Origin: Euglena gracilis
Taxonomy: Eukaryota
DNA length: 64,000 nucleotides
NCBI GenBank assembly: GCA_039621445.1
Contig: CP154954.1
Location: forward strand, 27,865,735-27,929,734
Reading direction: 5' to 3'
Position numbers and translations under genes: made by a program. The stretch's first letter is position 1, and each line of letters begins with the position of its first letter. Positions 2,343 to 24,136 of this stretch are shown here, one piece after another. The notes under the pieces were generated by a model. That model was not told the DNA's origin. It searched no databases and worked only from the letters and a program-made list of their open reading frames with translations.

Positions 2343-5300
2343 TCAACGTTTGTGGGTTTCCTTGAAGTACTCACCCATGTGTGGGTCTTGTACCAAGGTC
2401 ATTTCGGTTGGACGTAGGTCCAGGGTATCCTTGTCAGGATTATCCATGTCAATCCTGGGGATAACCCAACTTTTGACTTCTTGTATCTCCTTGGGAAGTT
2501 CTGTTCTGAGCGTTTCAGCTCGCTTGTGGAGGTAAATTTGCAAGTTTTCCCAGAAAACTCTCGGAAAAGTTGCAGGCCAAATGTAGTAGTTCCATCTTGG
2601 ATGATTTGCTGGTACCTGTGGTGGCATGCCAGGCATAGCGTTGAAATCAACGTTATGCACGCGGGATGCACAGGCACAACGGGTTATATGGGGTTTCAGA
2701 ATGGAGCCAACCCATTCTGAATAGTGTTCGTATCCATGTCGTTCTGGTGGGTACTCAGGGAGTAACCAACGTTGTGTGGTTTCAGAAACCGTTGAAGGCT
2801 TTGTAAACAGTGGGTAGATGACGTGTTTCCAGTCGTCATCATTGAACAGCAGGGGCAATCGCCCTTTTGTACATTCCACAGCCAGTCTGATTCCGCCGGA
2901 ATCAGTTTGGAAGTCAAAGGCGATTCCGCCGCGCTCAAAAGCATCAGCTTTCTTGAAACTTTTGAATTGGTACATTTGTCGTTTCGATTTGTAGTAGTTC
3001 AGGAAATCTTCAAGAACTTCCTCGTTTCCGGGTACGATCTTGAGATTTCCGCCATCTGCGGGCAACCATATGTCTGCCCGTAGGCAGTTGACACAGAAAA
3101 CTGGTACGTCACGGTCTCTGTCCTCTTCCGACCACCGGAAGTTGTTCAGTTTTCTCCAGGCAAGCATACAATCACCACAAATCAGGGCGGCTGTGTTTGG
3201 CACGAATTCATTGTGGTGAAAGTTCTTCCGTTTGTTGTCTGCATAACAGACATGCACAGCGGGCATGCTGTTACGGATGTTGTGACAGACTGTACAGAGC
3301 CAGGTTGTTTGGCCATTCGGCCGATTGTCAAACAGGAATGTCTCCCCAAGGTATTGGGCAAACACTCTTGGTGATCTGGCATTGTAGAATCGCCAAATAT
3401 GTCGAATATAGTAATTGTACCTCTCTTCGTTGAAGAAAAGCGGTTGAATCCACTTGTTCAACAGTTGTCCGCGTTCGCGGGCTAATTGTATGTTGACAAT
3501 GCGTTCTCCGACGCTCGGCAGGTTGGAGATAATGTCTTCTTGCCAAAGTGTGGCATTATCATCAACCGGCATGTTGTCATCTTGTGAGGTCTCCGACGTT
3601 GTATCTTGTCGCGTTCTACCTCGAATGGTAGAAGTGACCCGGCTTTTCCCGGCCACTTCGGTATATGTCGGGGCTGGTGTGGTAGCGGCTGAGGTTTTCG
3701 CCTTCTTTCCTGATTTGCTACCACTCCCAGGCTGTGCTGGTTTTGGCTCGTTGTGTCGCTCAGCCGGTTTGCATGTTTCTGCAAGCTGAGGTTTGGCTTT
3801 GGACTTACTGCCTTTCTCTTTCCGCTGCGGCGGAAGAGGGCGTTCTGCAGGCGATTTTGGAGCAGGTTTGGCTGTTGGTGTGGTAGTAGTAGTGGTATTA
3901 GATGGTACGTGAGCAGCCGTCGGTACCACCTGTTCAGGTGTGTGTACCACTACGGGTGTTGTGTCATGTGCTGGCGTTTGTTCGACCGTAGTCGATTCGG
4001 TTGTTGTCACCGCTTCGGGTGTTTGGACATCAACCGCGTCTGCGGCCAGTGTTGTTGTCGAAGCCGGAGCTTCTTGTGTGGTTTCTTCGCCAAGTCCCGT
4101 GTCGCGGGGACTTCGCGTCGAAGAAGAAGACCTCGATCGCACCATTGCAACCATCGAGGCTACGCCACTTCGGACGCTACCGAGGACGCGTCCAGCGGCT
4201 CGTCCGACTTCAGGTGGTATAAGTACAAAGTCGTTTGGGTCTGTCCATCTTTCGGCCATTTCTTCGTCAGTGATTTCTCTTACGACTGGAGCATTTGCCC
4301 AGACGGAAGGAACCGTGTCTGACGAAGGTACAGGGGCTATTGTAGATTCCGAAGGCACTTCGGCCGTTGTGGCTATTGTAGGCCCTCCGGCCATTGGAGG
4401 TTCCGTGGGTGCCTCCGGTTCTGTTTCTGGTAATGGTGTTTGTGGTCGTTGCTGAACAGGCGTTGTGGGTGGCACTTCGGCCCTTAGAGCCTGTTGTACG
4501 CTACCTTCTCCGCTTTCAGAATCCGCAGATGCGGAGGAGACGGAGCGTGTGCTGTGTTCATTGTATGTCCCTTCTTCCATTTCCTCATCGTTGGATGACG
4601 CAGAAGAGGAAACGGATGAAGTGTCTGACGAGTGTACGGGAGTATGTTCCACAGGCATTGTAGGAGTAGGTGAAGGTGGGGGCAAACGTTCTGCCGAACG
4701 TTTGTTTGTAGGCTTCGCTGCGGCTTTGGGTGTTGTCGTTGTAGATGACGCAGCCATTATAGGTTGTTCAGCTGCAGACTGCGCTGCTTCGGACTCCGGC
4801 GGCTGGGGTTCAGGTTCAGGTTCAGGAAGTTTTATACGTGGTCGTAGACGGAAGTTTTGCCATCCGACAAATCTGTTTCCTCCCGATCCGCGAGGAAGCC
4901 AGTCCAGTATCGGGATGGCCAACCCATCCTTATTTGTACGTTTGCCCTTAAAAAATGGGGCAAAGTCCTCTCTTCGGAGGGTTTCGCCAAACAGACGTTT
5001 GATGTATTTTCGTTTTCCGTCTTCGTCCCATTGAGGCCGAAGAGGGAGGTATTCTTGTGGAAGTGATTGTTTTGGGTTGAGTAGATTGTAGATTTCCAGA
5101 GCATAGGACACCCATGCTCTCCATTGGAAGGTCTGCATATGCAGAAGCATTTGTCGGTGGTTTCGTCTGGCGTATCCGATTTCCCTGACTTCGAGGGGAT
5201 TGTGGCAGATGTGTCCGAGTAGTCTTCGTTGTTGTTGGGCCTCCGCCCATTCGCGTTGGTGGGGCTGCGCCCTTTGTGCATTTGGGCGGTCGGTTGTCCG

Positions 5301-6005
5301 ACCGCGCACGCCAAAGCCCCAGAAGTCCACGGGGAACTTGTGGTGGCAGTGGGTGCACCAAAGCACGAATTTTTGTGGGTATGTCAGGTCGATTCCGACC
5401 ACTTGGAAGTGTGGGCCGTAGTGTTCGTTGAGGAAAATTTGGTAATTGTAACAGAACATTTCGTGTGTGACCAATTGTATGTCCTTTGGAAGTGGGAATA
5501 CTTCCCATTGTATGCCTTGTGGTCCGATTTCTCGGATATTGTCGAACATTGTCTTCAGTGCGTCAAGGGATGATTCCCATCCGTATTGTAGCTTTGGATG
5601 TGGCAAGTAGTGCGCTTTGCTGGCCGGCATTGCAAATGAACCGAAGTTCAGGCAATGGAATCCAAGCCAGAAAAGTAGTTGCCAGAAACCCGGCAATTTG
5701 TCGATGCCATCCTGGCTTTCGTAACAGGAAATTGTACCGTCGAAGAAAAAGCCACGAGCTTTTTCCTTGTAAAGTCTGACCATATTGTGATGTACTTCGG
5801 GAGCAACAACCCAAGGGTGTTGTTCTTCGTAGTACTCGTGCATAATTGTATCACATCCGTCTGAAATCCAGAACAGATGGTCAATCATAAATTGTACGTC
5901 CAAGTCGTAACCAGGTGAGCCTTCGCTCTTTCCTTTGCCTTTCTGGCCTTTCTGTCCTTTTGCGGCTTCGCGCTCTTGTTCGTTCCAACGGTATGCACCG
6001 TCCTT
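2343..6005 (-). CDS. Extra ORF3, part b (~1220 codons; two aromatic-rich folded-looking regions with CxxC motifs flanking a T/P/S-rich linker)
   Basis: Same frame as part a, separated by one TGA (6006-6008). WCTHCHH, LCTVCHN, ICGDC and FCVNC motifs. Confidence 0.72.
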   Translation of the reverse strand, partial: KDGAYRWNEQEREAAKGQKGQKGKGKSEGSPGYDLDVQFMIDHLFWISDGCDTIMHEYYEEQHPWVVAPEVHHNMVRLYKEKARGFFFDGTISCYESQDGIDKLPGFWQLLFWLGFHCLNFGSFAMPASKAHYLPHPKLQYGWESSLDALKTMFDNIREIGPQGIQWEVFPLPKDIQLVTHEMFCYNYQIFLNEHYGPHFQVVGIDLTYPQKFVLWCTHCHHKFPVDFWGFGVRGRTTDRPNAQRAQPHQREWAEAQQQRRLLGHICHNPLEVREIGYARRNHRQMLLHMQTFQWRAWVSYALEIYNLLNPKQSLPQEYLPLRPQWDEDGKRKYIKRLFGETLRREDFAPFFKGKRTNKDGLAIPILDWLPRGSGGNRFVGWQNFRLRPRIKLPEPEPEPQPPESEAAQSAAEQPIMAASSTTTTPKAAAKPTNKRSAERLPPPSPTPTMPVEHTPVHSSDTSSVSSSASSNDEEMEEGTYNEHSTRSVSSASADSESGEGSVQQALRAEVPPTTPVQQRPQTPLPETEPEAPTEPPMAGGPTIATTAEVPSESTIAPVPSSDTVPSVWANAPVVREITDEEMAERWTDPNDFVLIPPEVGRAAGRVLGSVRSGVASMVAMVRSRSSSSTRSPRDTGLGEETTQEAPASTTTLAADAVDVQTPEAVTTTESTTVEQTPAHDTTPVVVHTPEQVVPTAAHVPSNTTTTTTPTAKPAPKSPAERPLPPQRKEKGSKSKAKPQLAETCKPAERHNEPKPAQPGSGSKSGKKAKTSAATTPAPTYTEVAGKSRVTSTIRGRTRQDTTSETSQDDNMPVDDNATLWQEDIISNLPSVGERIVNIQLARERGQLLNKWIQPLFFNEERYNYYIRHIWRFYNARSPRVFAQYLGETFLFDNRPNGQTTWLCTVCHNIRNSMPAVHVCYADNKRKNFHHNEFVPNTAALICGDCMLAWRKLNNFRWSEEDRDRDVPVFCVNCLRADIWLPADGGNLKIVPGNEEVLEDFLNYYKSKRQMYQFKSFKKADAFERGGIAFDFQTDSGGIRLAVECTKGRLPLLFNDDDWKHVIYPLFTKPSTVSETTQRWLLPEYPPERHGYEHYSEWVGSILKPHITRCACASRVHNVDFNAMPGMPPQVPANHPRWNYYIWPATFPRVFWENLQIYLHKRAETLRTELPKEIQEVKSWVIPRIDMDNPDKDTLDLRPTEMTLVQDPHMGEYFKETHKR

Positions 6006-8276
6006 TCAGTATGCTCGTGTTTTTCTCCACATTGTAACAGTTACACCAGCGGTGTAATGTCCAGCGGTGTCGTCGAAGGGCTTGTCTGGATGCATTAGAT
6101 GATGGATTTCTTGTAAAGATCGTTGTACGTTGGACGGGATCGGCAGGTCATCGTTGTCCTGACGATCTCGTTGCGCGTTCGCGCTTTGTGAGTTGTCGTC
6201 CAAACGACGACGTTGTGTGTCGGGCGTTGGACGTGTTTGTGGAGGTGTCGCAAACACCGGTCCACGCGGACGTTTGCGTGCGTCAACGTTGTAGGGTTTT
6301 GCTGGAGCTGTTAAATGTTGTAGAGCTTCCTTGTAAGTAGCGTGCTGTGCTGGCGACTGAAACCGAGGTTGACCCGAGAAAGGTTGTCCCGGTTCAACGG
6401 GTTGTGTCTGTCCAGCCGAAGCCGGTTGTGAAGGTACAGGTTGTGGAGCGGTCGTAACAGGAGGTACCCGTACAGGAATTGTAGATTGTGCGGGTGGTTT
6501 TGCGCGTGCCGACTGCGCGGCTTGAGCAGGGGGTCCTGTTCTTTGTATAGGTGTAGGTTGGTTTGAACCTGCTGCGGATGCGGCAGGCTGAGTGGCAGTC
6601 GATTGTGCAGTCGAAACTGCTTGTACCGGTGTTGTCTGTGGTGCCGGAGTAGGTTGAGCTACTGGCGGCACAAGGTTCGACGCAGAAGCGAGTTGTTCTG
6701 TTGGACCAGGTGGATGTGGGGGTGCATTCACACGTAAAACTTGGGGTAGTGCCCAGGTGGGAACACCCAAAATTTTGGCGTTTGGTCCCCTTCCATCCAT
6801 TATCACTCCTTGTACGTTGATGGTTCCCAAATAGGATCCCAGTTCGTAAATTTTGTCGAGTGGAAGGTATTGTTCGTTCTGAGTTGTGTAAGCAAAATCT
6901 CCAGATTGTGGCACTCGTTCATAGTGAATGTTGTCCACTACGGGATGCAGAGGGTGTTCTCCGACAACCCGTATCGCTGTCGGTTCCGGCAGCGGTACAG
7001 CGGAGGTTGTCGGCGGCTGTTGTGGCGAAGATTGTACAGGTTGCGGTGATTGTACAGCTTGTGGTGGTTGGGGTTGTACAGATTGTACGGGTTGTGGTGG
7101 TTCGTCTGTTTCCATGGTATACTCCGGCTCAGGTTCTGCCGTTGTATACTCGTCACATTCGGCCATTTCGGCCATTTCGTCGGTATATTGTTCGTCGTAT
7201 GGCTCTTCGGCCTCCATAGCGTATTGTGATTGTGTGTCAGCCTCCCAGTTCCGGGCAGGCGGTATGCGTGGGGGAGAAGAAAAACGTTGTTGCGGTAAAT
7301 ATATTGGTTCTTGCATTTGTACGTCACCCATCTCACTTTCTGTGAGTTCTGGAGTATAGCGGCGCATGTGTTCCGCGTAAGCACCCACTGGGTGCACTCC
7401 GCGGAGCACAGGCGGGACCAGGACTCCCAGGTCCCTGAGGGTTACATTGTCTGGAAATCCGGATTCTCCGGGTTGGAAGAAAATTCTGCCAGCTATCGTA
7501 CTCTGGGACCACATGTCCCAGGTGGCGATAGGTTTGTTGGCGATTGCAAGCAATTGTCGGCAGTAGGAATCCCACATCACTCGGATGAAGGGATCCGGTC
7601 TGTCCTCTGCGCACATGCGCAGAGCGTTCCGAATTGTATCTGTTGAAGCCGTTGTCAGTTCACCCATGTATTTGGGGAACCGAGGCATCACAGGAGCGGC
7701 ATACTGCCTTTGGGGTTCTGGTTGTGTGGCATACTGCCCTTGTGGAGGTTGTGCGGCATACTGCCCTTGCGACGGTTGAGCGGGGTAATAACGACTGCGA
7801 AGTTGTTCAGCCAGTCGTCGTTGTTCTGGCACCGCATACTGTTGTTCTACTGTCGCAAAAGCAGCGCGTTGTGCACTACTACTGGCCATATCGTATCTCC
7901 TGGGGGGCCGCGGTTGTGGCACCGCAAACTGTTCATAGGCAGATTCCGTTTGATGTGGAATCGTGGGTTGAGAGTGTAAGCCACCAAGTGTAGTTTGTTC
8001 TGGGGCAACATGCGGAATCGCATGTTGAGTTACAGGAGGATTGGCCACTACGGGCCTTGCTGCCGAAGGAGCTTGTACATGAAGGGCTGCCACTACGGGC
8101 CTTGCTGCCGAAGCAGCTTGTACATGTCCAACGGGGACTTGCTCTCCCCGAGGGAGTACAAGTCCTCGTCCTCCCGAAGGAGGTTGTGGGTAAGGAGGTC
8201 CTCCCGGAGGAGGTTGTCCAGGGGGAACATACGGTTGGGAGGATGGGGGACCAGGTCCCCTTCCTCCAGCATCCAT
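6006..8276 (-). CDS. Extra ORF3, part a (756 aa, P/Q/A-rich, unknown function)
   Basis: Long open frame inside the LTR element downstream of pol. Likely ATG at 8276 follows a polypyrimidine-CAG acceptor. Confidence 0.7.
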   Translation of the reverse strand: MDAGGRGPGPPSSQPYVPPGQPPPGGPPYPQPPSGGRGLVLPRGEQVPVGHVQAASAARPVVAALHVQAPSAARPVVANPPVTQHAIPHVAPEQTTLGGLHSQPTIPHQTESAYEQFAVPQPRPPRRYDMASSSAQRAAFATVEQQYAVPEQRRLAEQLRSRYYPAQPSQGQYAAQPPQGQYATQPEPQRQYAAPVMPRFPKYMGELTTASTDTIRNALRMCAEDRPDPFIRVMWDSYCRQLLAIANKPIATWDMWSQSTIAGRIFFQPGESGFPDNVTLRDLGVLVPPVLRGVHPVGAYAEHMRRYTPELTESEMGDVQMQEPIYLPQQRFSSPPRIPPARNWEADTQSQYAMEAEEPYDEQYTDEMAEMAECDEYTTAEPEPEYTMETDEPPQPVQSVQPQPPQAVQSPQPVQSSPQQPPTTSAVPLPEPTAIRVVGEHPLHPVVDNIHYERVPQSGDFAYTTQNEQYLPLDKIYELGSYLGTINVQGVIMDGRGPNAKILGVPTWALPQVLRVNAPPHPPGPTEQLASASNLVPPVAQPTPAPQTTPVQAVSTAQSTATQPAASAAGSNQPTPIQRTGPPAQAAQSARAKPPAQSTIPVRVPPVTTAPQPVPSQPASAGQTQPVEPGQPFSGQPRFQSPAQHATYKEALQHLTAPAKPYNVDARKRPRGPVFATPPQTRPTPDTQRRRLDDNSQSANAQRDRQDNDDLPIPSNVQRSLQEIHHLMHPDKPFDDTAGHYTAGVTVTMWRKTRAY

Positions 8277-8596
8277 CTTGAGAAAGAGCAGATAGTAGCG
8301 AGTACTGAGCTGTGGGGAAACAGAGAAGTAAGACATTCTATGGTAACATTGTACGCATGCAATCAAATGTGCACAAACACAAAAATATTTGTATGTTTGT
8401 ATCAATTGTAAAATCAAAATTGTAGCTCCAAGTGTAAAAGTACTTTGTATAGGACCGTAGTGCTTTAGCGAAAAGTCCTTCGCTAGGGACAAAATGGTTC
8501 GGCATCCGCCCATTATACATTTTGGCATCCGCCCATTATACATTTTGTCAAAAGTCCAGGCTATGGACAAAATCTTGGACATTTGTACATTATCCC

Positions 8597-11500
8597 TTAG
8601 AAGATGTTTACAGAAATGTCAATGTTGTTTCTTTTGTTCCATAGTTTCCAGTCTTGTTGGATGTAACCAACAAAACTAGTTGCAGGTTCCCAAGTGTCCT
8701 CTTCGGGACCATACCCTTTCCATCGTACTTTCCAGTAGTGTATACCCCTGTCCACTTTGTGGTCGAGGATTTTGTCGACGACAAAATCATCTGTTTCAGG
8801 CAGTTTTGACCGTGGTTTGAAGTAGAGACAGGGTATTGCTTTACCGTTCGGTGGAGTCAAGTATGGTTTGAAGTCATCCATGTGCACATCCTCAACCCCG
8901 TTGGGTAAAGCGACTTTGTAGCGCCCACTTGTACCCAACCGGTCGAGGATCTCACATGGCCCGATCCAGAGGGGGTCCAACTTCGTGGATTGCATGCGGG
9001 TTCTACTGTTCCGAACCCACACGCGGTCACCTGGGTTGTATATCGGTGATTTGTATTCTTGTAAGAATTGTTTTTGTTTTTGTAAATGTATAGCGACTAC
9101 GCGCTTTTGCACATCCGTGCGCAATGATTCTACTTCAGAGAACCATGTTTCGCAACTCACGCTAGAACGAGCGGGTCGTTCTGACGGGATGTCGCCGATG
9201 GCTGGGGGGTCTCGTCCGAAGACGATCTTGTACGGTGAGTATTGTAGTATTAACCCCGGTAAAGTGTTGATATAAAATAAACACCAGGGTAAGATTTGTA
9301 ACCAGGCATTGTGCGATTCGGCCAGTGAAAGTCGTAGCATATTGACTACAGCTTTCACTGCCGCTTCCGCGCGACCATTACCTTTTGGTCGGTAAATTAT
9401 AGAAAAATGCTGCTCAATTCCGAGTAAACCGCAAAGAGTTGTAAAAAATCGAGAAGAAATCAAATGATCTTGATCACTCACGATTTCATTCGGTAAACCC
9501 ATGAGGCAAATGCATTTTTCTAAAAACATTTGTGCCAAAACTTGTGCTGTCAACCCTGCTTTCTGGCATGGAATGGCTACAATGTACCCACTCAGCCGAC
9601 AGACGACAACTAGAATGTAGTCATAAATTTTGTCATCTGTTCCTTTGCAAGGTTCAAGTTCCAGAAAATCCATGCAGAGGGACGTAAAAATGTCATTTGG
9701 TACGGGGAAGAAATCCATCGTACCAGGGGGGGTACCTCTGCGCGGTTTCACAGCTTGGCAAATTTGGCACCGTTGTGAAATTTGTAAACAGCGCTTGTAC
9801 AATTCTTTTTCGGTGAGGGTTGTACAGTACCTGCGACCCACCAAAGAAAGAAGTTTGGGGGCCCCAGGGTGACCTTGGTTGTGATAACACAAAAGTACGT
9901 CATCAACCAAGTCACAGGGTATGCAGTACTTGTATCCGGTATCATTCCGAAAAATCAAACGTAAAGGCGATAAGGTGTAATTCTCAATCAATTCACCATT
10001 ACGCAATCTTTGTACGATATCATTGTAAAAATAATCTTTGGAATAATCCCATTCTCGAAAAAAGAGAGGGGATGGGGATTCTGATCGCGTGACCCGGCGG
10101 GGGCCCGGCATTCTGCCGCGTTGTCGTTTTCCCCGTACGGGGGCTATCGGCAACCGCCGCCAAATTCGCGAGACAGGAAAATTGTCGAGTAAGTTGTCAG
10201 CGGCGTCTGCGCGCCTTGCGTAATCGTCGGCTTCGCGACTTCCGTGAAACGTGGCATCACCCTCGTCAGGGTTACCAGGGTAATGCCAAGGTGCACGAGA
10301 GAGTGGGTCTGCGACTTTTTGAGTATGACCTGGTGTGTAAACTACCACCAGGTTGAACTGACTCAAAAATTCGTGCCAGCGGCATCTTCGGCCAACTGAG
10401 GACATGGCTTTGTTCAAGTCTTCGGTGTACCAGTGTTGGAGAGACTCATGGTCTGTCAACACTAGTATTTGTACGAGTGAACTGGCGACCCAACTTCGGA
10501 ATTTTTGTAAGATGAGGACAATGGCATACGTTTCCTTTTCTCGTATGCTCCATTTGACTTGTCCTTTACCGTCTTCACCTTGTAGTTTTCTGCTGAAGAA
10601 TGCTACAGGGCGCAATTCATTGGACGAGTTATGTTGACTCAACACACCGCCGACAGCATAGTCACTGCTGTCGACTTGCAGTACGTAAGGTTTGTACGGG
10701 TCAGCAATGTCAAGCACAACATTGTCCAACATCAGTTGTTTGATTGTCGTTAGCGATTCTCGCATCCTATCATCCCATTGTATCTTGGTATTGTCGGGAG
10801 CGCGATTTTTGAGTTGTCGAGTCAGTGGTACCGCGATTTTCGCGAAATCCTTCATGTAAATCGCGTAGTACTGTGCTAAACCCAAAAATCCTTTTAAATG
10901 GGTAATTGTTTTGATGTTTTCAGGTGTCCACTTCTTTATAGCTTCAAGTTTGCTTGGAGATGCTCTCCTTTGTCCGTTGTTAAGAATGTGTCCACAAAAT
11001 TTTATCGTTTCGCGAAACAAATGCATTTTCGCGCCTTTGACGAAAAGCAAGTGTTTTTGAAACGTTGTCAGTACGGATCGTATATCGCGGTAGTGAATAT
11101 TAAGGATATCACTACCTGAATTTGTAAGTGGAGGAGGTGTGCCTATCAGCACATCATCAATGTATACCATTGCGAATGGTAAATCTCGTAAAATCCATTG
11201 TATCATTCTTTGGAACATGGCTGGGCCATTCTTAACACCCATTGGTAACACCGTCCATTGGTAAACTCCATGGGAGGTTACAAATGCGGTGTATGGTTGT
11301 GAGTCAGGATGTAAGTGCATCTGGTGAAAACCATCCTCTAAGTCGAAAATGGACCAGAGGCGGTTTTCCGCTTGTTTTGTAATCAGGTCTTCAATAAGTG
11401 GTAACGGAAATGGATCGTCCTTTGTCTGTGAGTTTAAGTATCGGTAATCCAGTACAAGTCTCCACTTCTTCTGTCCAGAAGCATCGGGAGGCTTGGGTAC

Positions 11501-12150
11501 AACAAAAGCTTGTGAGGTCCACTCGCTTTTGGAGGGTATGATCCATTTTCGTTCAATCAGTTTTTCGATCATTGTATTGAGAGCTTCTTCTCTTTCGCCT
11601 GAACAGCGAAAGAATTTTCGGTGCATGGGCTGTGCACCTTCTTTGAGTTCGATTTTACAGACACCAAAAGGTCCGCGAATTGCAGGATCTATGTCATGGG
11701 CATAGATAGGATGTTCAAGAACATCACTGAATTCGCGATTGATCTTTGTACACAGTTCCTGTGATTTGGGATGTTGACCACCGCTTTCTATCACTGCGGA
11801 TAGTTGGTATGTTTGGTCTTTCTGACCTTTTTCCCGTAGGAATTTGTCATTGTGGTCAACGGTTCCGAATGCATCGAAGAAACAAACACGAAAAATGATT
11901 TCTTTCAATGGTGGTAACATGACACCGCAAAAATCTTCAAACAATGGCGTGTCATTCGGTAAATCCCACCACTGAAAAGTGACATACGTCAATTGTTGGA
12001 ACCATTCCGTTTCGGGATTTATAGGAATGAGCAGCACACCGCGTGCTTGATCCCGAAGGATCTTGTCAACAACAAGAGGGATAAGTTTCAGAGGTGGATG
12101 TAGCCACAAGACCACATCACCCCAAAACTTATCAAACGCATTTTGTATGG
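8597..12150 (-). CDS. pol: Pol: RT, RNase H, integrase, chromodomain
   Basis: [20 protein letters not shown] and YIDD (RT). [12 protein letters not shown] and TDHESL (RNase H). HHCC plus CMDF/SDQD/GRAE (integrase). WIGPCEI (GPY/F). [18 protein letters not shown] (chromodomain). Confidence 0.95.
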
Positions 12151-12275
12151 CTTGACCAGTAATTGGGTAAACGAGAATGTGCCTTGGACGAAAATGCATC
12201 AATCTCCAATTGTAGGTCCATCGACTTCGCGATTCGCGCGATTTTGGAAAACCAAGTTTCCAAAATGCGGTATTG
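11867..12275 (-). CDS. Dam/DIRS-like N6-adenine DNA methyltransferase domain at the N-terminus of Pol (frameshift near 12150)
   Basis: [19 protein letters not shown] (ORF 12132-12956) continues in the pol frame as [48 protein letters not shown]. Confidence 0.72.
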
Positions 12276-13269
12276 TCCAAAATTGAACGCATTCCAAATG
12301 CGGTTCGCGAAAACTGTCGCGGTTTCAGTCCTGTGGAGGGCTGAAACGCAGTTTACCGAGCCACATCGGTAATGCGGTGTGTCCGAAGACACTTCACCAG
12401 GCATTGTACCAAGTGTATCACACGCATCAGGTGTATTGTCAAAAGTGTGATTGTTATTGGCATTCTGCCACTTGTATGCAGGCGTATTGGAGGGATTGGC
12501 ATTCTGCCATTCGGGGTCATAGAGATTGGCTTTCTGCCCTTGTAAGTCCTCCAGCGCGGTTCTCGCGATTCCAAACAGGGACGCGATTCCGCGTTTGTCC
12601 AATTGTCGATGTACTTCAACACACAACGGGTAACAACCCGGTGTGTTGTGTTCTCGTTCAGCGTTCCGGGTAAACTCAGTACCGATTTCGGTACCAAGTG
12701 TACTCTGGTTGTTGAGTAAGGCGATTAGTTTGGAAGGTTCAACAATACATCCACAGTCAAAATCAGGTTGTGTGGAAATTCTCCGGCATTGTGCGCATTG
12801 GAAGGAAGTGTCGGTCTGGTAGTGCATGTCGGTCATGTGTAGTGTGTGCTTGGGGGTGTTGGAAGTTGTAGCTGCTGGGGGGTGTACAGGGGTGTCCGAA
12901 ATCGACACACCTGGTGGAAAACGTAAAAGTTGTGCAGCTGGGCGGCTACTCGACACCGAAATTTCTTCAGGCCTTTGGGCTTTCGCCTTGGAACCCAGTG
13001 AAACGTGGGGGGTTAAGCTACTCGCTTTCCCTACCGCATGGGAAACGTGCGGTAAAAGTGTAGTGGGTAGGGGGGCAGCTTTCTCTTTACCCCTAGGGTA
13101 GGAAACGGTGTTTTCGGTTGTAGAAAACGTTGTGGCAAGGCGGGGACATCTTGGAAGATGTTTTGGGGGGGTAATTGGGTGGCTGGTAGGGTGGTTGGTA
13201 GGTAATTCGGGGTGGTGTGGGTTGTGTGCGTGAGGTTAGTGGGCAAAACGGAGGGGGGGCAACCCACAA

Positions 13270-13409
13270 CTGAGGCGGTTCTGACGCAAGAACGGAAAAC
13301 CCAAATTACGTCAGACGGGGGGGGGGGGGGGGGGGGGGGGGGGTGGGGGGGGGGAAGGTGTTTTTTGTAAAAATATAGTGGCCGGGCTGTGTTTGGTTTT
13401 TGTTTTTTT

Positions 13410-13442
<33 letters not shown>

Positions 13443-14031
13443 TTTTTTTGGGGGGGGTGGGGGGGGGGGGGGGGGTTTTGGGGCTTGACAGTAATTGGGT
13501 AAGTAAACGAGAATGTGCCTTGGACGCAAATGCATCAATCTCCAATTGTAGGTCCATCGACTTCGCGAATTTGCGCGATTTTGGAAAACCAAGGAAGCAT
13601 CCCAAGTCACCACCGCACATGGGGCTGTTGTCAGCAGTCATAATTTTGATGGGGTACTTGGCTTTCACCAAGAGGGAGTTGGGAATTAATCCCGTTCGGA
13701 AGAGAAGGGGAATTCGACACCCTGTGTCGACCAAAATTTTGCACTTGGTGGAAAAATTTTGTGTTCGGATTTCCGCTTGGACCAAAAGTTCCATGGGGGG
13801 TACGCAAAGTGCAGGATCCGGTGTAAAATTGTTGTCTCTCCAACTGTTCCAGGATCCCGTTCCTACTTTGCTCAGCATTCCAGGCAGAAATTTGGAGTGG
13901 GGGGTGGGGGACCCGAAAATTTTCCGGGTACCGACCAAAAAGGCAGATGGGCAGGGAAAGTAAGGTTGATCAAGTCCTACTTCCGGTTGTTCATCAGCCC
14001 AGAGGTCCGTGCCCACAGACCTCGGGCTCCC
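13270..14031 (-). CDS. Aspartic protease region, in frame after the gag UAG, disrupted at ~13306-13590
   Basis: KILVDTGC catalytic motif. C-terminal LGFPFL motif near 13280-13305, beyond a homopolymer-rich patch. Confidence 0.72.
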
Positions 14032-17000
14032 CTACTCCAGATCCGATTCAGCACTTCGGCTGTTTATCGTTTTCTTGTGTGAGTAGATGGCGCGCAATGC
14101 GTGGACCGCATTGCGGTCATCCTCCAACGAGGATTCAGAGTTGTCATCCCCCTCCCTGCCCGAAGCCGGGGTTCCCTCCTCCGGAGAGGAGATTTTGAAC
14201 CCGACTTTGTTATTGTGTTTGTTATTGTGTTTTGTATCATTGTAACGACGTTGGTTCGGGCGGGGAGAGCGAGAACGGTAACATTTGGACGAATGGTGGT
14301 TGTGTGATCCACAAAGGGAACACTTTTGTCGGTTTTGTGACTTTGATGGGCTTTCACCCCTTGGAGTTCTTGGTGAACGGAATCCCGTTCGACCACGGTT
14401 CTTGTTGTAGTCCGGTTTCCCGGAGGACGATCGCGAAGAAGATGATCCACTTCGCGAACGTGATCGCAAAGAGTCGCGATTTGTATCACGCTTGTAAGGG
14501 GGTCGGGGTGATCGACCACGAGGTACGCGATCACGTCTGCGGTCGCGGAACGGTGAGCGGGACCGTTGTCGATAACCCGAGGATTGTGATTGTCCAGATT
14601 TGTGTGAAAACCCAGAGGAGCGTGAGCTCCGCGAGGATTGTGAACCCCTTGGGCTCTGATTCCGCTTTCGCGTATCAGGATGGGGGCAGTCTCGGGACAT
14701 ATGCCCCGATTTGTTGCACAAAAAGCAAGTTTTGTCCGAAGATTGGTCAGATGAGCGCGGATAGCGCGTTTTTGTATCACCCTTTGGAGAGGTTGTGTGT
14801 TTTCCATATCCCCGTGGGGATTTTGGAGAAGGAGTCTTTTGTAGGGCACTTACCGTACCGCTAGGGAGACCAGCGGTAGGGTGGTGGGTATAAGCCGATT
14901 GTATCTGTCCCAAAAGTTGTGAGAGTTTCATTTGTTTGGAAACATAGTTCCACCGTTGTTCAAGTGTGAGTTTGTTGTCCGCGAGTTCCTCGCGGTGAAT
15001 GTCTTTGATAATTGTAGGAATGAAATGGACGAGAACCGCATCGAATTGTTCTTTCATTTGGTTCTCTCCCAGTTCATCAACCTCAGAAGCCAATCCCAAC
15101 CATTTGGAATACCAAAGGTCGATTGACTTCCATTTTCTGTCACTGGGCGCGAATTGCCGCCATTTTTTCTCAAGCGTAATTCGCGAAATTAGGCTTGAAC
15201 AAGTTGACGCATATTGGTCAACCAGTTCATCAAAAGTTATCCGATTCCGGATCACAAGTTGTCGGGCGCGTTCTTTTTCTTCCTTGGGGAGGCAATCAAT
15301 GAATTCCATCTTGATTACCTCAGGGTTCCCGTCTTGGGTTGGACCCTTCAAGTCCCAGTAGTATGTCCAATCGCGCCAAAATTGTTTCCAGGTTGTGGGA
15401 TCTCCGTCCCATTGTGGCTTTACCTTGTTAGCAATTGTAATTGTACCTTTGAAATCCTTTTGTGGACCACGATTTCCATCGTAATTGTTGGAGTAAGGTT
15501 GTTGTGGTGGCATGCGCGAATGCGCATCCAGGATGGTACTCATGGTACCATAGGTACCATGGGGGTTAGGTACATCGCGGTTCCGCGAATTGTATGGATG
15601 TGTGTCGCGATTCCGCGATTCGGATTGTAGGGGGTCGCGATTCCGCGATTCGGGGTGTGGTAACATACTAGGGGGGTAGGAATCCCGTTGTTCACCCGGG
15701 AATCGGGGAACCGCGGTAAATTCCGTGTTTCGCATTCGCGATTCGTGGCCAATACCCGGGGTAGGGGTATGGCTCATACCGCGAATCAGTCCCGATTCGC
15801 GAATTTCTTGTTGTAAAACAAGAGGATTGGCGGTTTTTGCGGGAAAAACCGGTTCCTCATCCGAAGATTCACCCTTGTGCGGGGGAATCTTGATTTGTGG
15901 TATAAACGGGCGATTGTAATCGTGATTGTAGGCATGTGCATGATCATGTGCATCCGTGGATGCTTGTAGGGCATGCGCATCCGAAGATGCTTGTATGGGT
16001 GCGCATACTGCGCTTTTGGAAGTATTGGCATCCAACACATCGCGAATTTGATGCACAAAGTCGCGAGTTGGATGTCGGGCATCCGAAGATGCTTCGGTTG
16101 GTGCGTGAAAAGCGCGTTGTGAGCTGGAAGTTGCAATTTGACCACCGAAAACGGTGTTTTCAAGGCCAAAGTGCGGGGGGTTGCGGGGTTTTGCATGAAT
16201 CTCATCCAGACTCAATGCAAAATCTTGTATGCTTTGTTCCAATGAACCAACCACTTGGAAAAGGTCCGAAATTCGTTCAACATCACACTGCAAACGCTTA
16301 ATACGTTTGCGGTATGAGGGTAGTTCATCCAAAAGTGGTAATTTGTCAGCAATGGATTCAAAATCCGCGGAAAGTTTTGGAAAAGTGGTGTCCAAAAATT
16401 GGACCAGCTTAACCAAAGTTTCCATTGCGGTTGTAAGTGCGTTTAACCGATTCTCGGTTTGTGGGGTTGTGGTACCCAACGTGGGTTGGGGTACCCTTAC
16501 CGCATTTTCAGCGGTTTTATCAACAATCATTGTAGAAAGTCGGTTCTCCAACACCGAAGCTTGTTGTTTTAGTGTGAGATCTTGTTGAGTGACCGAATTT
16601 TCGGTCCTCATCAAGGTTTCACAAAATTCTTGTAAGTTTTCTTGATTTTTCGCAAGCATTTGGTCATAAAATGTGCGAAAATCAACGGGTAGTTCGACTT
16701 CGCGAACCGTTTGTCCATCCGAAGATGGTTGGAGTCCGGAGACCCTTGTAGAAAGTTCTTGTACGCGTTTTTGTGAGCAGGAAGTGGTGGATTGTAAGGT
16801 TTTGTGTTGGGTATTCAAATCCGCAAGCGCGGTTTCGATGCCGGTGATATCCGGAATTGGTGTTTGAATACCGTTGCACCGTTTGTGCAAATCCGCAAAT
16901 GCAGATTCGATTTTGTTCACATCAGATTGTAATTGATTGTGCAAATCGGTAATAGTGGTTCGTAGTGCTCCCATACTGGGATTTTTTGTGGAAGTTTCCG

Positions 17001-18327
17001 CAAAGCGGCGTTGTAAGTCCCCAAATGCAGTTTGTAGTCCCGAAACATGCGCAAAAGCGGTTTTCAGGTCTGCAAACGCAATTTGGAGGTCCGCATTCGC
17101 GGTTTGTATGGTAGTTATGACCGTTTCGCGGTCTTGCAGTTCCGCATTCGCGGTTTGTAGGCTAAGGATCACCGCATCGCGGGATTGGAGTTCCACCGTA
17201 GCGGATTGTAGCGCATTGGAAGCAGTTTCGAGTTTTTGTATGTCATTTTGCCACTTTTCATGGAGGAAATCTTGCCGATACGCGATTTCCGCCATTTGAG
17301 TGTGCAAGGTGGTCAAATTGTTGGAAACTTCACCGCATTTGCAGGAAGTTTGTTCCAAACGAGCAATCCGCTCTTCCAGTTGTTGAGCAAAAGCTCTTTG
17401 TACATAGTTTTCGCGTATTTGTGCAAAATTTTGATGAAAACTCGCGTTTTCATCACCCAAACACAAAATGCGTTCTTGGGATTGTTGTACAACATTGGAC
17501 AAGGTTGAGAAGTGCTCATATGAGACATATGAGCCAAGTTCCGCACCCGTAGGCGCTTGATCCCGTTGTTGTATGCGGGACTGCATTTCTTGCATTGTAT
17601 AAGAAAAGTTTTCCATTTGTGTGAACAGTTGTTGTAGATTTTGTTGTAAATGTGAAAATTTTGTAGTATTCCGCGATTCCGCGGTTTGGAAGGTCTCTTG
17701 TACCTGTTGGAAGTTTTGTACCAAGGTGTCGCGCAAAAATGCGTCAAAACCTTGGTGGAGGTTCTGAAGGTCCATTGTAGTGGAGTTGAAATTCTTTTGG
17801 CAAAATTGTCCAAATTCTTGGATGTATTGCCAAAAGAAGTCCAGTTTGCCGAAAACGGCTTTGTGACTGTCTTCATCAAATTGTAGGACTTGGTTCAGTG
17901 TTTTAGCGCAATTTTGGACACATGCTTCGATGTGTCGAAATTGTTGTTGTAATGGGTGGCTCTCTGGTAAATTTGCGACTACGCGCTCAATGGTGTTACT
18001 GGAGAACGAATCCCGGTCTTCCTCGGGGTCATTGTCCATGGGAACAATGACACCGGCAGTGTCCGGGACCACCAACCGCATTTCAGCGGACCAAGGTAGT
18101 TCTGGGATTTCTCCCAATTGTGGAGGGGGGGGCAAGTCCCTAATGGGGCTTACCGGTGGTAGGGCAGGGGGGGGTTGGAAAAAACAAGGTGTTTCCAACC
18201 CGTCCTCGTAAGAGGGGGGCTCTGTTGGCAATTGGGTGCCAAAAGGCACTAATTGCCAACCCCGTTCGGGCATACTGCCCTCTTGTGAGTCATACTCCGC
18301 AGAAGCGGAGGGGGTCCGTAGACCCAT
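14032..18327 (-). CDS. gag: Gag-like polyprotein, 1431 aa (long coiled-coil region, capsid-like region, two CCHC knuckles, RS-rich tail)
   Basis: CFLCNKSGHMSRDC and CSLCGSHNHHSSKC zinc knuckles. First ORF after the PBS and leader. Confidence 0.85.
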   Translation of the reverse strand: MGLRTPSASAEYDSQEGSMPERGWQLVPFGTQLPTEPPSYEDGLETPCFFQPPPALPPVSPIRDLPPPPQLGEIPELPWSAEMRLVVPDTAGVIVPMDNDPEEDRDSFSSNTIERVVANLPESHPLQQQFRHIEACVQNCAKTLNQVLQFDEDSHKAVFGKLDFFWQYIQEFGQFCQKNFNSTTMDLQNLHQGFDAFLRDTLVQNFQQVQETFQTAESRNTTKFSHLQQNLQQLFTQMENFSYTMQEMQSRIQQRDQAPTGAELGSYVSYEHFSTLSNVVQQSQERILCLGDENASFHQNFAQIRENYVQRAFAQQLEERIARLEQTSCKCGEVSNNLTTLHTQMAEIAYRQDFLHEKWQNDIQKLETASNALQSATVELQSRDAVILSLQTANAELQDRETVITTIQTANADLQIAFADLKTAFAHVSGLQTAFGDLQRRFAETSTKNPSMGALRTTITDLHNQLQSDVNKIESAFADLHKRCNGIQTPIPDITGIETALADLNTQHKTLQSTTSCSQKRVQELSTRVSGLQPSSDGQTVREVELPVDFRTFYDQMLAKNQENLQEFCETLMRTENSVTQQDLTLKQQASVLENRLSTMIVDKTAENAVRVPQPTLGTTTPQTENRLNALTTAMETLVKLVQFLDTTFPKLSADFESIADKLPLLDELPSYRKRIKRLQCDVERISDLFQVVGSLEQSIQDFALSLDEIHAKPRNPPHFGLENTVFGGQIATSSSQRAFHAPTEASSDARHPTRDFVHQIRDVLDANTSKSAVCAPIQASSDAHALQASTDAHDHAHAYNHDYNRPFIPQIKIPPHKGESSDEEPVFPAKTANPLVLQQEIRESGLIRGMSHTPTPGIGHESRMRNTEFTAVPRFPGEQRDSYPPSMLPHPESRNRDPLQSESRNRDTHPYNSRNRDVPNPHGTYGTMSTILDAHSRMPPQQPYSNNYDGNRGPQKDFKGTITIANKVKPQWDGDPTTWKQFWRDWTYYWDLKGPTQDGNPEVIKMEFIDCLPKEEKERARQLVIRNRITFDELVDQYASTCSSLISRITLEKKWRQFAPSDRKWKSIDLWYSKWLGLASEVDELGENQMKEQFDAVLVHFIPTIIKDIHREELADNKLTLEQRWNYVSKQMKLSQLLGQIQSAYTHHPTAGLPSGTVSALQKTPSPKSPRGYGKHTTSPKGDTKTRYPRSSDQSSDKTCFLCNKSGHMSRDCPHPDTRKRNQSPRGSQSSRSSRSSGFSHKSGQSQSSGYRQRSRSPFRDRRRDRVPRGRSPRPPYKRDTNRDSLRSRSRSGSSSSRSSSGKPDYNKNRGRTGFRSPRTPRGESPSKSQNRQKCSLCGSHNHHSSKCYRSRSPRPNQRRYNDTKHNNKHNNKVGFKISSPEEGTPASGREGDDNSESSLEDDRNAVHALRAIYSHKKTINSRSAESDLE

Positions 18328-18995
18328 TGTAGGATGGTGTTTTACCGCAAATGCGGTTGTTGTAAAGTTTGGTCCGCAAATGCGGGTTGGGTCCGTAGAC
18401 CCTTGGAGGGGGGGGGTACCGCCGAAGCGGCTTGGGTCCGAAGACCCTTGGAGGGGGGGGGGGTACCGCCGTAGCGGCTTGTAGGGGGGGGCACCGCCAA
18501 TGCGGTTCGGGTTCGAAAACCCAGTTGTGGGGGGGGTGCCACCGAAGCGGCTTGGGCATCCTCCCCTTGTATAGAAAAATTTTCCACCGCAGAAGCGGCA
18601 TGGGCATTCGCCCCTTGTGAAGGAAAATTTTCTGCCGCAAAAGCGGTTTGGGCCTCCGCCCCTTGTGAAGAAAAATTTTCTGTCGCCGTAGCGACTTCGT
18701 CTGCATTGTATATTCCTCGAAGCGAACCTATTAACAAAACGTAGTTAATAGGTGCGTTTCCATTGTTTGTATTTGCGCTTTGCATATTTGATGAAAAGTT
18801 GGGAAAATTTTTGTGAAAATTGGGAAAATTGTAAAAATTGTAAAAATTTGTGTAAAAATCCCCAAAAAGATAAGCAAAGGTGGGGGCTCAGAGACTTTGT
18901 GATGCAGCCGTAGCCACTTGTGCCCCTGAGACACCTCGCCCGTGCTTAGGCGCCTTTTCTGAGTTTTTGTGTGGTCGTACGACCGTTAAACCTAA

Positions 18996-19005
18996 TCTGC
19001 TACCA
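18996..19005 (-). promoter_or_regulatory. Primer-binding site, tRNA-iMet type (TGGTAGCAGA)
   Basis: Starts 2 nt inside the 5' LTR boundary, begins with TGG, and resembles initiator-Met PBS sequences. Confidence 0.75.
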
Positions 19006-19007
19006 AG

Positions 19008-19436
19008 TGTACGTCCCACCCCGGCTTTTCTACTTAAGGTTTTCCCCTGAAAAGGCCGTGGGGGGAGTAACAATAAAATTTGCTTCCCTTTTCCCCTTTT
19101 GAATGCAAAGCACACAAGCAGAAGAATTGGTGGGACCGCAGTCCCTTATATGATTGTGACTTTTGCTCTTTCGAGCTTTGTAAAAGAAAGAAAGAAAACT
19201 TCTATTCAAATGGGACTTCGCCCTCAGAATTCTAAAACAGAATTGCAAAGCACCAAACCCTGTAACCTTGAATTAGGAACCAGTTACTTTCGCTAAGCTT
19301 TCGCTAGCTCCGAGCTTCTCTCTTTGTCTTATGGTTTTAACCATGCCACTGTGTACGGCCCGGCCGTAGCCAGGTTGTAGGCCGTAGCCCCTTGTATCTG
19401 GTACACAGTGCCATGGCAGTATGGCTGCCTGGTACA
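19008..19436 (-). repeat. 5' LTR
   Basis: Direct repeat of 1529-1957 with about 7 substitutions counted by eye (~98% identity). TGTA...TACA termini. Confidence 0.93.
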
Positions 19437-20560
19437 CCCCCCCCCTCTTGCAGGGGGGGCTGATATTGGGGGGTGGTGCTGAGATTTTTTGGAGTTGCAT
19501 TGGGCTGGGGTTGATGATCCTCCTCTTTTGGGTTGGGGGGGGGTTGTTTTGCCAACTCATTTTGATTTGGAGTTGCCTTGGGATGAAATTCTTGATCCAT
19601 TTGTTTTACTGGGTGAACATATTGTGTTGAGTTGTCCCCTCTTTGGGGGGGACTTTGTGAGACAAAAGGGTAAGCTGCAGGCAGAAAAGCAAAGGCTGAT
19701 GGTGATGCCAGTACCACATCTGGGATTAAGGGTGCTGGCAGGCCAGGGTTGTGTAATGGTGTTGGGAGGAGGGGCACTTGAGTACTCTGGCTGTGCTGAG
19801 AAAGGCTCTGAGGGTTCTGAAGAGTTCAGCCTCTCTCCTTCTCTGCTCTTCTTCTCTGGTCCAATTCTTCCTCTGGTCATCTTCTCTGCTCCAGTTTGAT
19901 TGCAGTGGTTGCTGAGATTGCTGGTGTTCACCCCAAAGGTTGGTCTGTGATGGAATGTACATTTGTATGATTGATGTGACAGATGGACATACTTGACTTC
20001 TACCCACCGGTGGGCATTGGAATGGGCTGTTCATTGGAATGCCCACTGATGGGCCTGACTGTTGAATGCCCACTGCTGGGCTTGCTGTACAGGGGGGCCC
20101 CAGACTCACTTGCTGATGGAGCTGGGGCTGAGGAGAACTCTGTTGAGATATATGATAACTGGGTCAACCTCTCTGCCATGGGGGCTTGTAATCTGTTCCA
20201 AACCTTCTCTGTAGGTACTCTTCGTGCTCTTCCCTCTCTTGCCACGTCCTCTTCCTTCTCTGTGAGCTGCTGTCTTGACTTTCTCTGTCACTATGTACAG
20301 GGCGGTCAGCAGTGAGTCGTTGTGCCACAGCAGTGGTTAGCACAGGCACCAACAGCGGCAACAACATCTTGGCCAGCAGCTCCAACTGTCCAGTGTCCAC
20401 TGCAGAAGTAGGTGTACTTGAAGGGTTGGTTGTGGTAGCAGCTTGATTGACAAGGGGTGTATTGTCTTGAGTCTTGGGGTCTTCTGGAGGGCCATCCGGC
20501 CCCTTTGCAGCCATGGTGGTTATGCAGACGAAAAAACTTCTTTTTTTTTATTTATGCAGA
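19437..20560 (-). pseudogene. Unit D 5' part (SL-headed, ATG at 20514), interrupted by the LTR element
   Basis: Full SL at 20561-20585, then ccaccATGG and a broken low-complexity ORF. Apparently continues at 1528. Confidence 0.55.
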
Positions 20561-23500: not shown

Positions 23501-24127
23501 CGGTGGAGGCGTTGCGACCCTCTTGTCCATGGGGCCCCGCCCTGGTGGCTCCTCAAATGGGTGCATGTCTTGGAGTCTTTTCCGAACGGTAGGGTGCTTG
23601 TCGTCTTGCACACCGTCGGACAGCAACAATTGGCACGCCTTCCCCACTGCCCCTTTACCGACAAGGCGTTCCAGCCGGCGAACAAAGCCTTCCTCTTGCA
23701 CCTCCTCCTCTCGTCGGACCTGTCCCCGGGTTCGAACCAAGGTGGCCGGTTGCGCGCGGTGCTGAGAATCTTCCCAGCTGTCATTCACGGGGCGTTTGAG
23801 ATACGACTCCGCTCTCGCTCTGATGACTCTTCCGAGCCTCGCCCAGTGACCCCGTCCTCCTTTCCCCAAGGGCGCTAGGACAGATTTTGGGAAGGCCCAG
23901 AGCGCGTGGAGGGTCTCCCATGTTGGTCTTTCGTTGAAACATCTCAGGACAGTTGAGTATGAATCACAGACAGCCGGCAAGGCCCCTTTCGGGATGATTG
24001 ATACCGTCCCCCGGTGGTCCAGGGATATGTCTGTCCACGAGGGTGACAGTGGTGGGCACGGATCAGTCAAAGGAGAGCCCGTTCTCATTCCCGGCAGGAA
24101 CGGAATAGACACTCCCGGCAGGAACGG
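20586..24127 (-). mobile_element. Non-LTR retrotransposon unit C (CRE-type RT + RLE), 5'-truncated
   Basis: Intact RT-RLE ORF, ~500-nt 3' UTR, and SL-derived sequence at both junctions. Confidence 0.88.
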
Positions 24128-24136
24128 AATAGACAC
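21095..24136 (-). CDS. Reverse transcriptase + CCHC finger + restriction-like endonuclease (unit C)
   Basis: AGPSGL, RPIASGE, LDFSNAFN, GVQQGDPCGP, WYLDD, CPRC..HHLVC, RRHN, RPGD..DVT..K..KY. Confidence 0.93.
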   Translation of the reverse strand: MSIPFLPGVSIPFLPGMRTGSPLTDPCPPLSPSWTDISLDHRGTVSIIPKGALPAVCDSYSTVLRCFNERPTWETLHALWAFPKSVLAPLGKGGRGHWARLGRVIRARAESYLKRPVNDSWEDSQHRAQPATLVRTRGQVRREEEVQEEGFVRRLERLVGKGAVGKACQLLLSDGVQDDKHPTVRKRLQDMHPFEEPPGRGPMDKRVATPPPADEEERRDRLSLVRKAVFSFGKESAAGPSGLKPDHLKDMLSREAGGQAESLLEGLATFAFKSINDGWPVGAAEILASARLTALRKVKHPAQVNEAGNLLPPPLDPEHEGTRPIASGECVRRLVGKVLMRQPAVRKFTAEGMPGQFGVGCRDACGLIRMGLQHLVTTLSSTQAADWGVLQLDFSNAFNRVRRDALLEAARERCPEMVTWLETCYAEHSSLFLGDTCLRSKSGVQQGDPCGPAAFALAIQGLVEDLHSVCGWQAWYLDDAHIVGNMCQLEAAVRMILEKGPPIGVALNLDKCTLWGPAFRTAWSSLPMGTSILQQIPVTPFIPGSGIKSLGVPVCHPADGSFAEHTWFGRCEAAMKACSLLQRVPSAHVQFTILRMCLDACKVNDLLRATPSSYAQDQCALLSKTVRNTMSIISGRPLEEPQWVQATLPVRLGGLGIRDPVVERVNARWAATLDFVIRGDRILDLPAFCSVPLLPIDFAETVGAIKVSCSWPTSAQSFCDDPRRHDLLTPEMLTQRFWGNACAEARQQRLHAALEGTEKLKFSFQMKPHAMAWASVTPCASTKTLIPTREFQAIVQWSLAAPVVSATDSPPACPRCHNPTDVRGHHLVCCHKNNIVRRHNAVQSHILGLAQRAGFPARREESAPDGSRPGDVFVMRYDANGPAAIDVTIRHPLAPSRNRAGLEDIGRWHEEQEQDKIKKYGDVCQRRGWTFIPFVLDCYGGMGDGALTFVGNCIKLLAGQHDAWERRGVEGTCWQGISMTLAREVGRQLVWGQCPEELADHCLPESHKPYCTS

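Follow-up and report, generated by a model that had tools for sequence, protein, structure and literature searches.

Can a long terminal repeat (LTR) retrotransposon of the Ty3/gypsy type carry a DNA methyltransferase inside its Pol polyprotein, and would such a domain still write a DNA mark? A 64,000-nucleotide stretch of the Euglena gracilis genome raises this question (assembly GCA_039621445.1, contig CP154954.1, positions 27,865,735 to 27,929,734; hereafter the window, numbered from its first letter). On its minus strand lies an LTR-flanked element with a Dam-like domain upstream of the reverse transcriptase (RT). An initial annotation had proposed that a chromovirus had captured an adenine methyltransferase between protease and RT, so that one polyprotein would combine a writer of N6-methyladenine (6mA) or N4-methylcytosine (4mC) with a chromodomain as reader. 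We found that the domain is genuine and that its place in Pol is regular in intact relatives. Most likely, the locus is a chromovirus of the DAM-LTR type, present here as a defective copy, and its Dam-like domain would be weakened or non-catalytic rather than a standard 6mA writer.

The Dam-like peptides lie on the minus strand in two frames, in the open reading frame (ORF) 12132-13235 and then in the ORF 8597-12352 (protein P0001). The motif I-like IDAFSS is located in the upstream frame, and motif IV reads HPPL at 12089-12100, as noted by the initial annotation, whose caution about activity was justified. A domain profile built from 93 homologous domains and the domain of the paralog P0002 was run on the six-frame translation of the window and matched 11840-12148 (profile positions 66-167, E = 2.3e-38) and 12144-12335 (profile positions 7-67, E = 2.3e-12). 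The Dam-like domain in the window is real, far beyond chance. It had been placed at 11867-12275, and it is indeed present there, split between two minus-strand frames, but this span was slightly too narrow, the profile giving about 11840-12335. P0002, which is 97% identical (the single match of a k-mer search, 169 candidates), contains spacer, Dam domain and RT in one frame. Its 197-residue domain matched PF05869 with E = 5.4e-5 (23.4 bits, profile positions 28-105 of 169), and a phmmer search with this domain against 1.84 billion representative proteins yielded 476 homologs at E ≤ 1e-3, 91 at ≤ 1e-10 and 10 at ≤ 1e-30, the best with E = 2.5e-46. Dam was detected at E ≤ 0.01 in 10/10 long homologs scanned, 4/10 of which exceeded the Pfam gathering cut-off of 28.1 bits; homolog scores above this cut-off were 37.9 (P0016), 31.6 (P0018), 39.7 (P0023), 29.5 (P0033), 49.2 (P0150) and 31.7 bits (P0066). 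In alignment A1, 59 of the 74 members matched Dam at E ≤ 1e-3, and the positions conserved to at least 90% (D56, F58, W81, W87, P91, K101, P114) are all 7 present in the window reading, where the N-terminal D-x-F motif is kept as well. The homology of the window domain to PF05869, the family of phage-type N6-adenine methyltransferases found in DIRS elements as well, is thus genuine.

For structure prediction, the domain of the intact paralog P0002, not the frameshifted window reading, was folded by AlphaFold2 with alignment A1 (predicted local distance difference test, pLDDT, 87.2; predicted template modelling score, pTM, 0.79). In this model the domain keeps a compact class-I S-adenosylmethionine (SAM) methyltransferase fold of the Rossmann-like type. 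Among the predicted viral structures of BFVD, DNA N-6-adenine methyltransferases of phages matched best (E = 2.2e-9 to 1e-6). In VIA-align comparisons with solved chains, the Z score was 10.9 for CAPAM, 8.5 for T4 Dam, 8.4 for M.TaqI and 8.3 for E. coli Dam, and CAPAM and KsgA/DIMT1 occupied the top ranks of the Foldseek search of the PDB. A search of the PDB by sequence yielded no match for the single domain and none for the A1 profile. The check for a Rossmann-fold methyltransferase that the initial annotation had suggested was thus positive with Foldseek, VIA-align and BFVD, and its call of a Dam/DIRS-like methyltransferase is borne out by both the PF05869 homology and the phage-type fold.

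The catalytic motif tells a different story from the fold. In N6-adenine methyltransferases, the first residue of motif IV forms a hydrogen bond with the target amino group, while the aromatic residue stacks on the flipped base. The HPPL of the window departs from the catalytic tetrad (D/N/S)-P-P-(Y/F/W). Motif IV was counted in the 93 sequences covering the domain core among the 150 homologs listed of the 476: the first residue was Asn in 68/93 and His in 13/93, the Pro-Pro pair was kept in 74/93, and the fourth residue was aromatic in 67/93. A maximum-likelihood tree was calculated from 93 sequences, namely the P0002 domain and 92 of the 93 homologs, one having been dropped by a length filter (<110 residues). 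P0002, standing for the window domain, fell into a clade of 12 (Shimodaira-Hasegawa-like approximate likelihood ratio test, SH-aLRT, 98). Seven members of this clade showed NPP followed by I, V or L, three showed HPPL, HPMF or HPPF, one YPPI and one NPHY; the canonical NPP plus aromatic residue (F/Y/W) was found in 0/12. Seven clade members with 37-45% identity to the query nevertheless share 28 invariant columns, suggesting that the domain is not decaying freely in this clade and stays an open, well-conserved module despite the degenerate motif IV. METTL14, the non-catalytic partner of METTL3, offers a precedent, as it combines the adenine-N6 methyltransferase fold with a degenerate x-P-P-L tetrad and serves as a binding scaffold. 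Given the degenerate motif IV, the roles of its residues and the METTL14 case, we judge standard Dam-type activity in the window's clade unlikely on the basis of sequence. Four DIRS-type loci from metagenomes (L001-L004) exhibited the classical motif string with FPPF at motif IV; three of them (L002:2604-2837, L003:920-1153 and L004:2510-2743) are 97-99% identical to each other in nucleotide sequence and read FPPF, not NPPF. The Asn has thus been lost outside the window's clade as well.

The element that hosts the domain is an LTR-flanked Ty3/gypsy chromovirus, as initially annotated. Self-comparison of the window revealed a direct repeat of 442 bp (1524-1965 versus 19003-19444) with 97.7% identity (9 mismatches in 439 bp) and TG...CA-type ends read from the sequence, which delimits an element of about 17.9 kb from LTR to LTR on the minus strand. 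P0001 (1251 aa) unites RVT_1, RNase H, H2C2, rve and Chromo matches in one frame according to Pfam, and the best solved relatives of the clade profile (A2) in the PDB by sequence were the Ty3 RT structures 4ol8 and 7q5b; RT chains alone matched this profile, and no protease did. Since no tyrosine recombinase was found by Pfam in the ORFs of the element, it is not a DIRS element. Its features, all on the minus strand, are as follows.

19003-19444, minus: 5′ LTR, direct repeat with 1524-1965; TG start near 19436, end near 19008.
18991-19005, minus: putative primer-binding site, a TGG... stretch directly after the 5′ LTR, proposed from sequence, no tRNA assigned.
14032-18744, minus: Gag-like ORF, 1570 aa long, whose CCHC zinc knuckle lies at 14686-14727 (zf-CCHC, E = 4.1e-5).
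13591-14031, minus: protease-like region with DTG at 13720-13728, from alignment with relatives; second half missing in the window copy.
13150-13590, minus: rearranged stretch, a duplicate of the Dam N-terminus and G/C-run low-complexity sequence.
12336-13235, minus: spacer between protease and Dam, with CxxC...CxC at 12747-12803, within ORF 12132-13235.
11840-12335, minus: Dam-like (PF05869-type) domain with predicted methyltransferase fold, from profile matches, homologs and the model; frame broken at 12141-12144.
10982-11500, minus: reverse transcriptase, RVT_1 (P0001 residues 285-457, E = 9e-27).
10355-10777, minus: RNase H (P0001 residues 526-666; RT_RNaseH, E = 1.9e-23; RT_RNaseH_2, E = 3.3e-23).
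8876-9922, minus: integrase (P0001; H2C2, residues 811-871, E = 1.4e-5; rve, 892-989, E = 1.9e-8; SH3-like C-terminus, 1108-1159, E = 1.7e-6).
8678-8785, minus: chromodomain at the C-terminus of Pol (PF00385, P0001 residues 1190-1225, E = 1.9e-9).
2343-8618, minus: two long ORFs of 870 aa and 1220 aa with one in-frame TGA between them; no known domain.
1524-1965, minus: 3′ LTR, preceded by a purine-rich run at 1960-1969 resembling a polypurine tract.

The order of Pol is protease, Cys-motif spacer, Dam-like domain, RT, RNase H, integrase and chromodomain, and the position assigned by the initial annotation, with a DTG protease-like region upstream and RT downstream, holds. The segments of the window Pol (8597-14031) were compared pairwise with P0154, the closest full-length relative, and for most segments also with the more distant P0019.

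Protease: 43% identity to P0154.
Spacer: 27% to P0154.
Dam: 47% to P0154, 44% to P0019.
Linker between Dam and RT: 72% to P0154, 39% to P0019.
RT: 82% to P0154, 46% to P0019.
RNase H: 85% to P0154, 49% to P0019.
Integrase: 70% to P0154, 37% to P0019.
SH3 and chromodomain: 82% to P0154, 32% to P0019.

Identity to P0154 jumps at the C-terminal edge of Dam, from 27-47% in protease, spacer and Dam to 70-85% from the linker through the chromodomain. Either a faster-evolving 5′ half of Pol or a recombinant Pol with two histories fits this contrast.

Is the domain a regular constituent of this Pol, or did it arrive there by accident? A fragment of a DIRS element, nested or mis-assembled into a gypsy element but outside its Pol, could leave such a picture, and the window copy is indeed rearranged near the domain (13150-13600), has a frameshift inside it, and is accompanied by isolated fragments of the Dam N-terminus at 13482-13593 and 48314-48511. 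We nonetheless consider such an accident scarcely credible. P0002 holds spacer, Dam and RT in a single frame, and in seven more proteins, encoded on independent contigs, Dam precedes RVT_1 within a single ORF. This arrangement is seen in P0007, P0019, P0023, P0033, P0066 and P0095, and P0154 (1677 aa) extends through the integrase, so that a single protein comprises Dam, RVT_1, RNase H, integrase and Chromo. Six relatives align continuously over DTG protease, spacer and Dam. Moreover, the element ORFs lack a detectable tyrosine recombinase, and Dam precedes RT here, whereas it follows RNase H in DIRS. In intact relatives the Dam-like domain is an integral, in-frame part of Pol. Other homologs carry it elsewhere: in P0150 Dam lies between RNase H and integrase of a gypsy Pol (49.2 bits), and in P0108 and P0131 between integrase and RVT_2 in copia-order elements. 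The domain has therefore been inserted at several points of LTR-element polyproteins.

As to function, our favoured reading is that the catalytic tetrad of motif IV would have been lost in the element and its 11 closest relatives, and that the Dam-like domain would act as a weakened or non-catalytic module of the replication or integration complex that binds SAM or nucleic acid. Writing of 6mA or 4mC by the window domain appears doubtful, and the writer role initially proposed is not supported, as the tetrad is non-canonical across the local clade. An active N6-adenine (or N4-cytosine) DNA methyltransferase that modifies the cDNA of the element or the sites of insertion, and forms a writer-reader pair with the chromodomain, could account for the methyltransferase fold kept in the high-confidence model, for the closest structures being adenine-N6 enzymes, and for the preserved Pro-Pro core of motif IV and D-x-F motif. 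We regard it as unlikely, however, because HPPL stands in the place of N-P-P-aromatic in the window and the canonical tetrad is absent from all 12 members of the clade; the Dam domain has also diverged from the nearest relative far more than RT, RNase H and chromodomain (47% versus 82-85% identity), and other DAM-bearing transposable element (DAM-TE) proteins gave no increase of 6mA in E. coli, as a recent preprint reports (bioRxiv 10.64898/2026.05.21.726589). It is improbable, too, that the domain methylates RNA or an RNA:DNA replication intermediate, for example adenines of its own transcript, rather than double-stranded DNA. In line with such a substrate, CAPAM/PCIF1, a cap-specific mRNA adenosine methyltransferase, ranks first among the solved structures (Z 10.9, Foldseek rank 1), the next neighbours are the rRNA adenine methyltransferases KsgA/DIMT1, METTL5 and Erm, the BFVD matches include PCIF1-like proteins of giant viruses, and the same preprint suggests a hybrid substrate as a reason for the negative outcome of its assay in E. 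coli (bioRxiv 10.64898/2026.05.21.726589). Yet neighbours at Z 8-11 share a common fold that does not fix the substrate, sequence homology points to the phage DNA Dam family, and the degeneration of motif IV argues against any adenine-N6 catalysis. A more specific version of the non-catalytic reading, which we put forward tentatively and with less than even confidence, would be a separate DAM-chromovirus lineage whose captured methyltransferase is now a pseudo-enzyme that binds SAM, DNA or a hybrid, perhaps together with the CxxC...CxC motif; owing to a weak Pfam score, the published screen would have missed or undersampled it. Such a pseudo-enzyme might, for example, recruit the host 6mA machinery or steer integration alongside the chromodomain.

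Several observations weigh against a weakened Dam homolog in a DAM-LTR chromovirus. Motif IV is the single feature from which the loss of catalysis would be read; His could in principle replace Asn as hydrogen-bond partner, and the clade members with HPPF and NPHY keep an aromatic residue. The two domain pieces of the window had no Dam match in Pfam at E ≤ 1, and the score of P0002 stays under the gathering cut-off. A first scan of metagenome contigs gave 23 pattern matches with no relative among them, and a second returned 4 distant DIRS-type loci with 31-33% identity, three of them near-identical. Finally, more 6mA-methylated copies occur among DAM-LTRs in three hosts, according to the preprint, which keeps the active-writer model alive for the class (bioRxiv 10.64898/2026.05.21.726589).

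The architecture, which the initial annotation did not know to have been described, is in print: DAM-LTRs, including chromodomain-bearing ones, were reported in May 2026 (bioRxiv 10.64898/2026.05.21.726589). This preprint covers 10,030 eukaryotic DAM proteins, claims the first Dam domains in non-DIRS LTR elements, and attributes 30.9% of the DAM-TEs to LTR elements with a chromodomain and 21.3% to those without. Five DAM-LTR lineages are distinguished there (Chlorophyta chromovirus-like, Chloro-Ochrophyta, Ichthyosporea, Pyropia and Euglena), the DAM fold is described as a compact five-strand sheet with flanking helices, Asn-Pro-Pro is given as almost universally conserved in DAMs, representative DAM-TE proteins expressed in E. 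coli brought no gain of 6mA, and the idea of writer plus reader is the authors' own working model (bioRxiv 10.64898/2026.05.21.726589). Our element agrees with a DAM-LTR in being a Ty3/gypsy LTR element with a PF05869-type Dam in the Pol ORF and a C-terminal chromodomain, and the related domains reported for DIRS, gypsy and IN-Dam-RT (copia-order) elements are all three represented among the homologs found here. It differs in motif IV, the window's clade having HPPL, NPP plus I/V/L, HPMF, YPPI or NPHY versus the near-universal Asn-Pro-Pro of the preprint. The match of P0002 to PF05869 (E = 5.4e-5) is weaker than the threshold of 1e-5 used there, the E-values coming from different searches. At 17.9 kb, the element is also of unusual size; some 2,090 extra codons follow the chromodomain, and no DNA methyltransferase (DNMT) was found in them. 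A full-text literature search retrieved no further paper on Dam-bearing LTR elements beyond the preprint, and the accessible parts of the Chlamydomonas v6 paper and the Ectocarpus TE paper report no Dam domain in a gypsy element. What the window adds is a member of a DAM-LTR clade with non-canonical motif IV.

Older comparisons are instructive as well. The methyltransferase domain of DIRS1-like tyrosine-recombinase retrotransposons was reportedly described by Goodwin and Poulter. The window domain belongs to the same family and displays the same motif string (D-x-F-[AS]-S, A-F...W, x-P-P-x, K-I, P-x-W...W), but DIRS elements combine a tyrosine recombinase with a domain placed after RNase H, whereas our element has a DDE integrase, a chromodomain and the domain before RT. 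With phage Dam (PF05869) it shares significant sequence similarity and the best predicted-structure matches in BFVD; in contrast to phage Dam, the central part of the profile alone aligns, with a score below the cut-off, and motif IV retains neither the catalytic Asn nor the aromatic residue. METTL14 belongs to a different family (MT-A70) and serves as an analogy for an HPPL domain acting as a scaffold; the element is not known to have a partner enzyme. Retrotransposon-borne DNA-mark enzymes are relevant to the manipulation of host chromatin by mobile elements, and a clade that keeps the domain but not the canonical catalytic residues offers a natural test. If its domain still methylates, the motif rules of the family need revision; if it does not, its selective value would be binding, not writing, and the model for the whole class changes. 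The class has been in print only since 2026, and other members gave negative results when assayed in E. coli.

The copy in the window is itself dead, as no intact Pol is possible given the frameshift in Dam and a truncated protease followed by rearranged sequence. The Dam frame is broken by a one-base length difference in the A-run 12141-12144. Four sequencing runs were placed on 8597-13300 as contigs, which carry no transcript-level or strand information, and one letter is absent at 12141 in 32 contigs of X1, 35 of X2 and 1 of X16, so this lesion is not shared by many of the family's other copies. This family is extremely abundant and very high-copy: 25,034 and 24,787 contigs were placed in two DNA runs, and the contig layout shows 375 variant places on 8597-13300. 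The RNA library X16 contained near-identical pieces, one of them across the frame-break site; DNA carry-over is possible, and these pieces are not proof of transcription. The protease ends after its first half at about 13590, and relatives continue where the window stops. What follows at 13482-13593 is a duplicate of the Dam N-terminus, 93% identical to 12149-12256, and then G/C-run filler with stops in all frames to about 13150. Summed contig depth is about 50-fold lower in 13150-13300, and contigs with loose ends at 13145 numbered 34 in X1 and 45 in X2, the majority of other copies in these two runs departing from the window sequence at about 13145; the rearranged stretch is therefore peculiar to this or few copies. 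We regard the window copy as a dead insertion without consequence of its own. Weaker matches of the domain profile, both fragments, were obtained at 48314-48511 (E = 2.6e-10) and 13504-13572 (E = 0.021). The former is an isolated fragment of the N-terminal half of Dam on the minus strand, from a related copy with 77% nucleotide identity to 12166-12296. Both fragments stop close to the domain position at which the frame break (12141-12144) lies.

The Gag ORF ends with TAG (14032-14034, minus) followed by G, the protease/Pol ORF lies in the same frame, and the predicted proteins P0004, P0007, P0009 and P0153 start just past the equivalent of this TAG, which suggests that Gag-Pol is expressed via stop-codon read-through, not frameshifting. 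The protease ORF of the window had no match in Pfam, and relatives gave weak protease matches; an alignment with P0004, P0007-P0010 and P0153 showed 23 invariant columns, including D-T-G. The spacer ORF 12132-13235 is 91% identical to the N-terminus of P0002. Its motif CxxC...(11 residues)...CxC is kept in 6/6 aligned A2 relatives, in an otherwise poorly conserved spacer, and is also present in the window copy (ORF 12132-13235, outside A2) and in P0002; it could be a small zinc-binding module working with the Dam domain. Beyond the chromodomain, the ORF of 870 aa is P/Q-rich and that of 1220 aa corresponds to P0155. Neither had a Pfam match at E ≤ 0.1, including none to a DNMT of the 'EpiLTR' kind. 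The unusually large size of the element is due to these two extra ORFs between chromodomain and 3′ LTR.

Overall, the window appears to consist of nested repeats with many G-runs and has no evident host gene; Rfam and tRNA scans of it gave no match. Outside the element, the ORFs 21095-24136 and 24602-27439 (minus) match RVT_1 in part (E = 3.5e-14 and 1.5e-11), show no further domain, and are listed together with 29780-30484. Tandem repeats at 28300-29000 adjoin two RVT_1-bearing ORFs.

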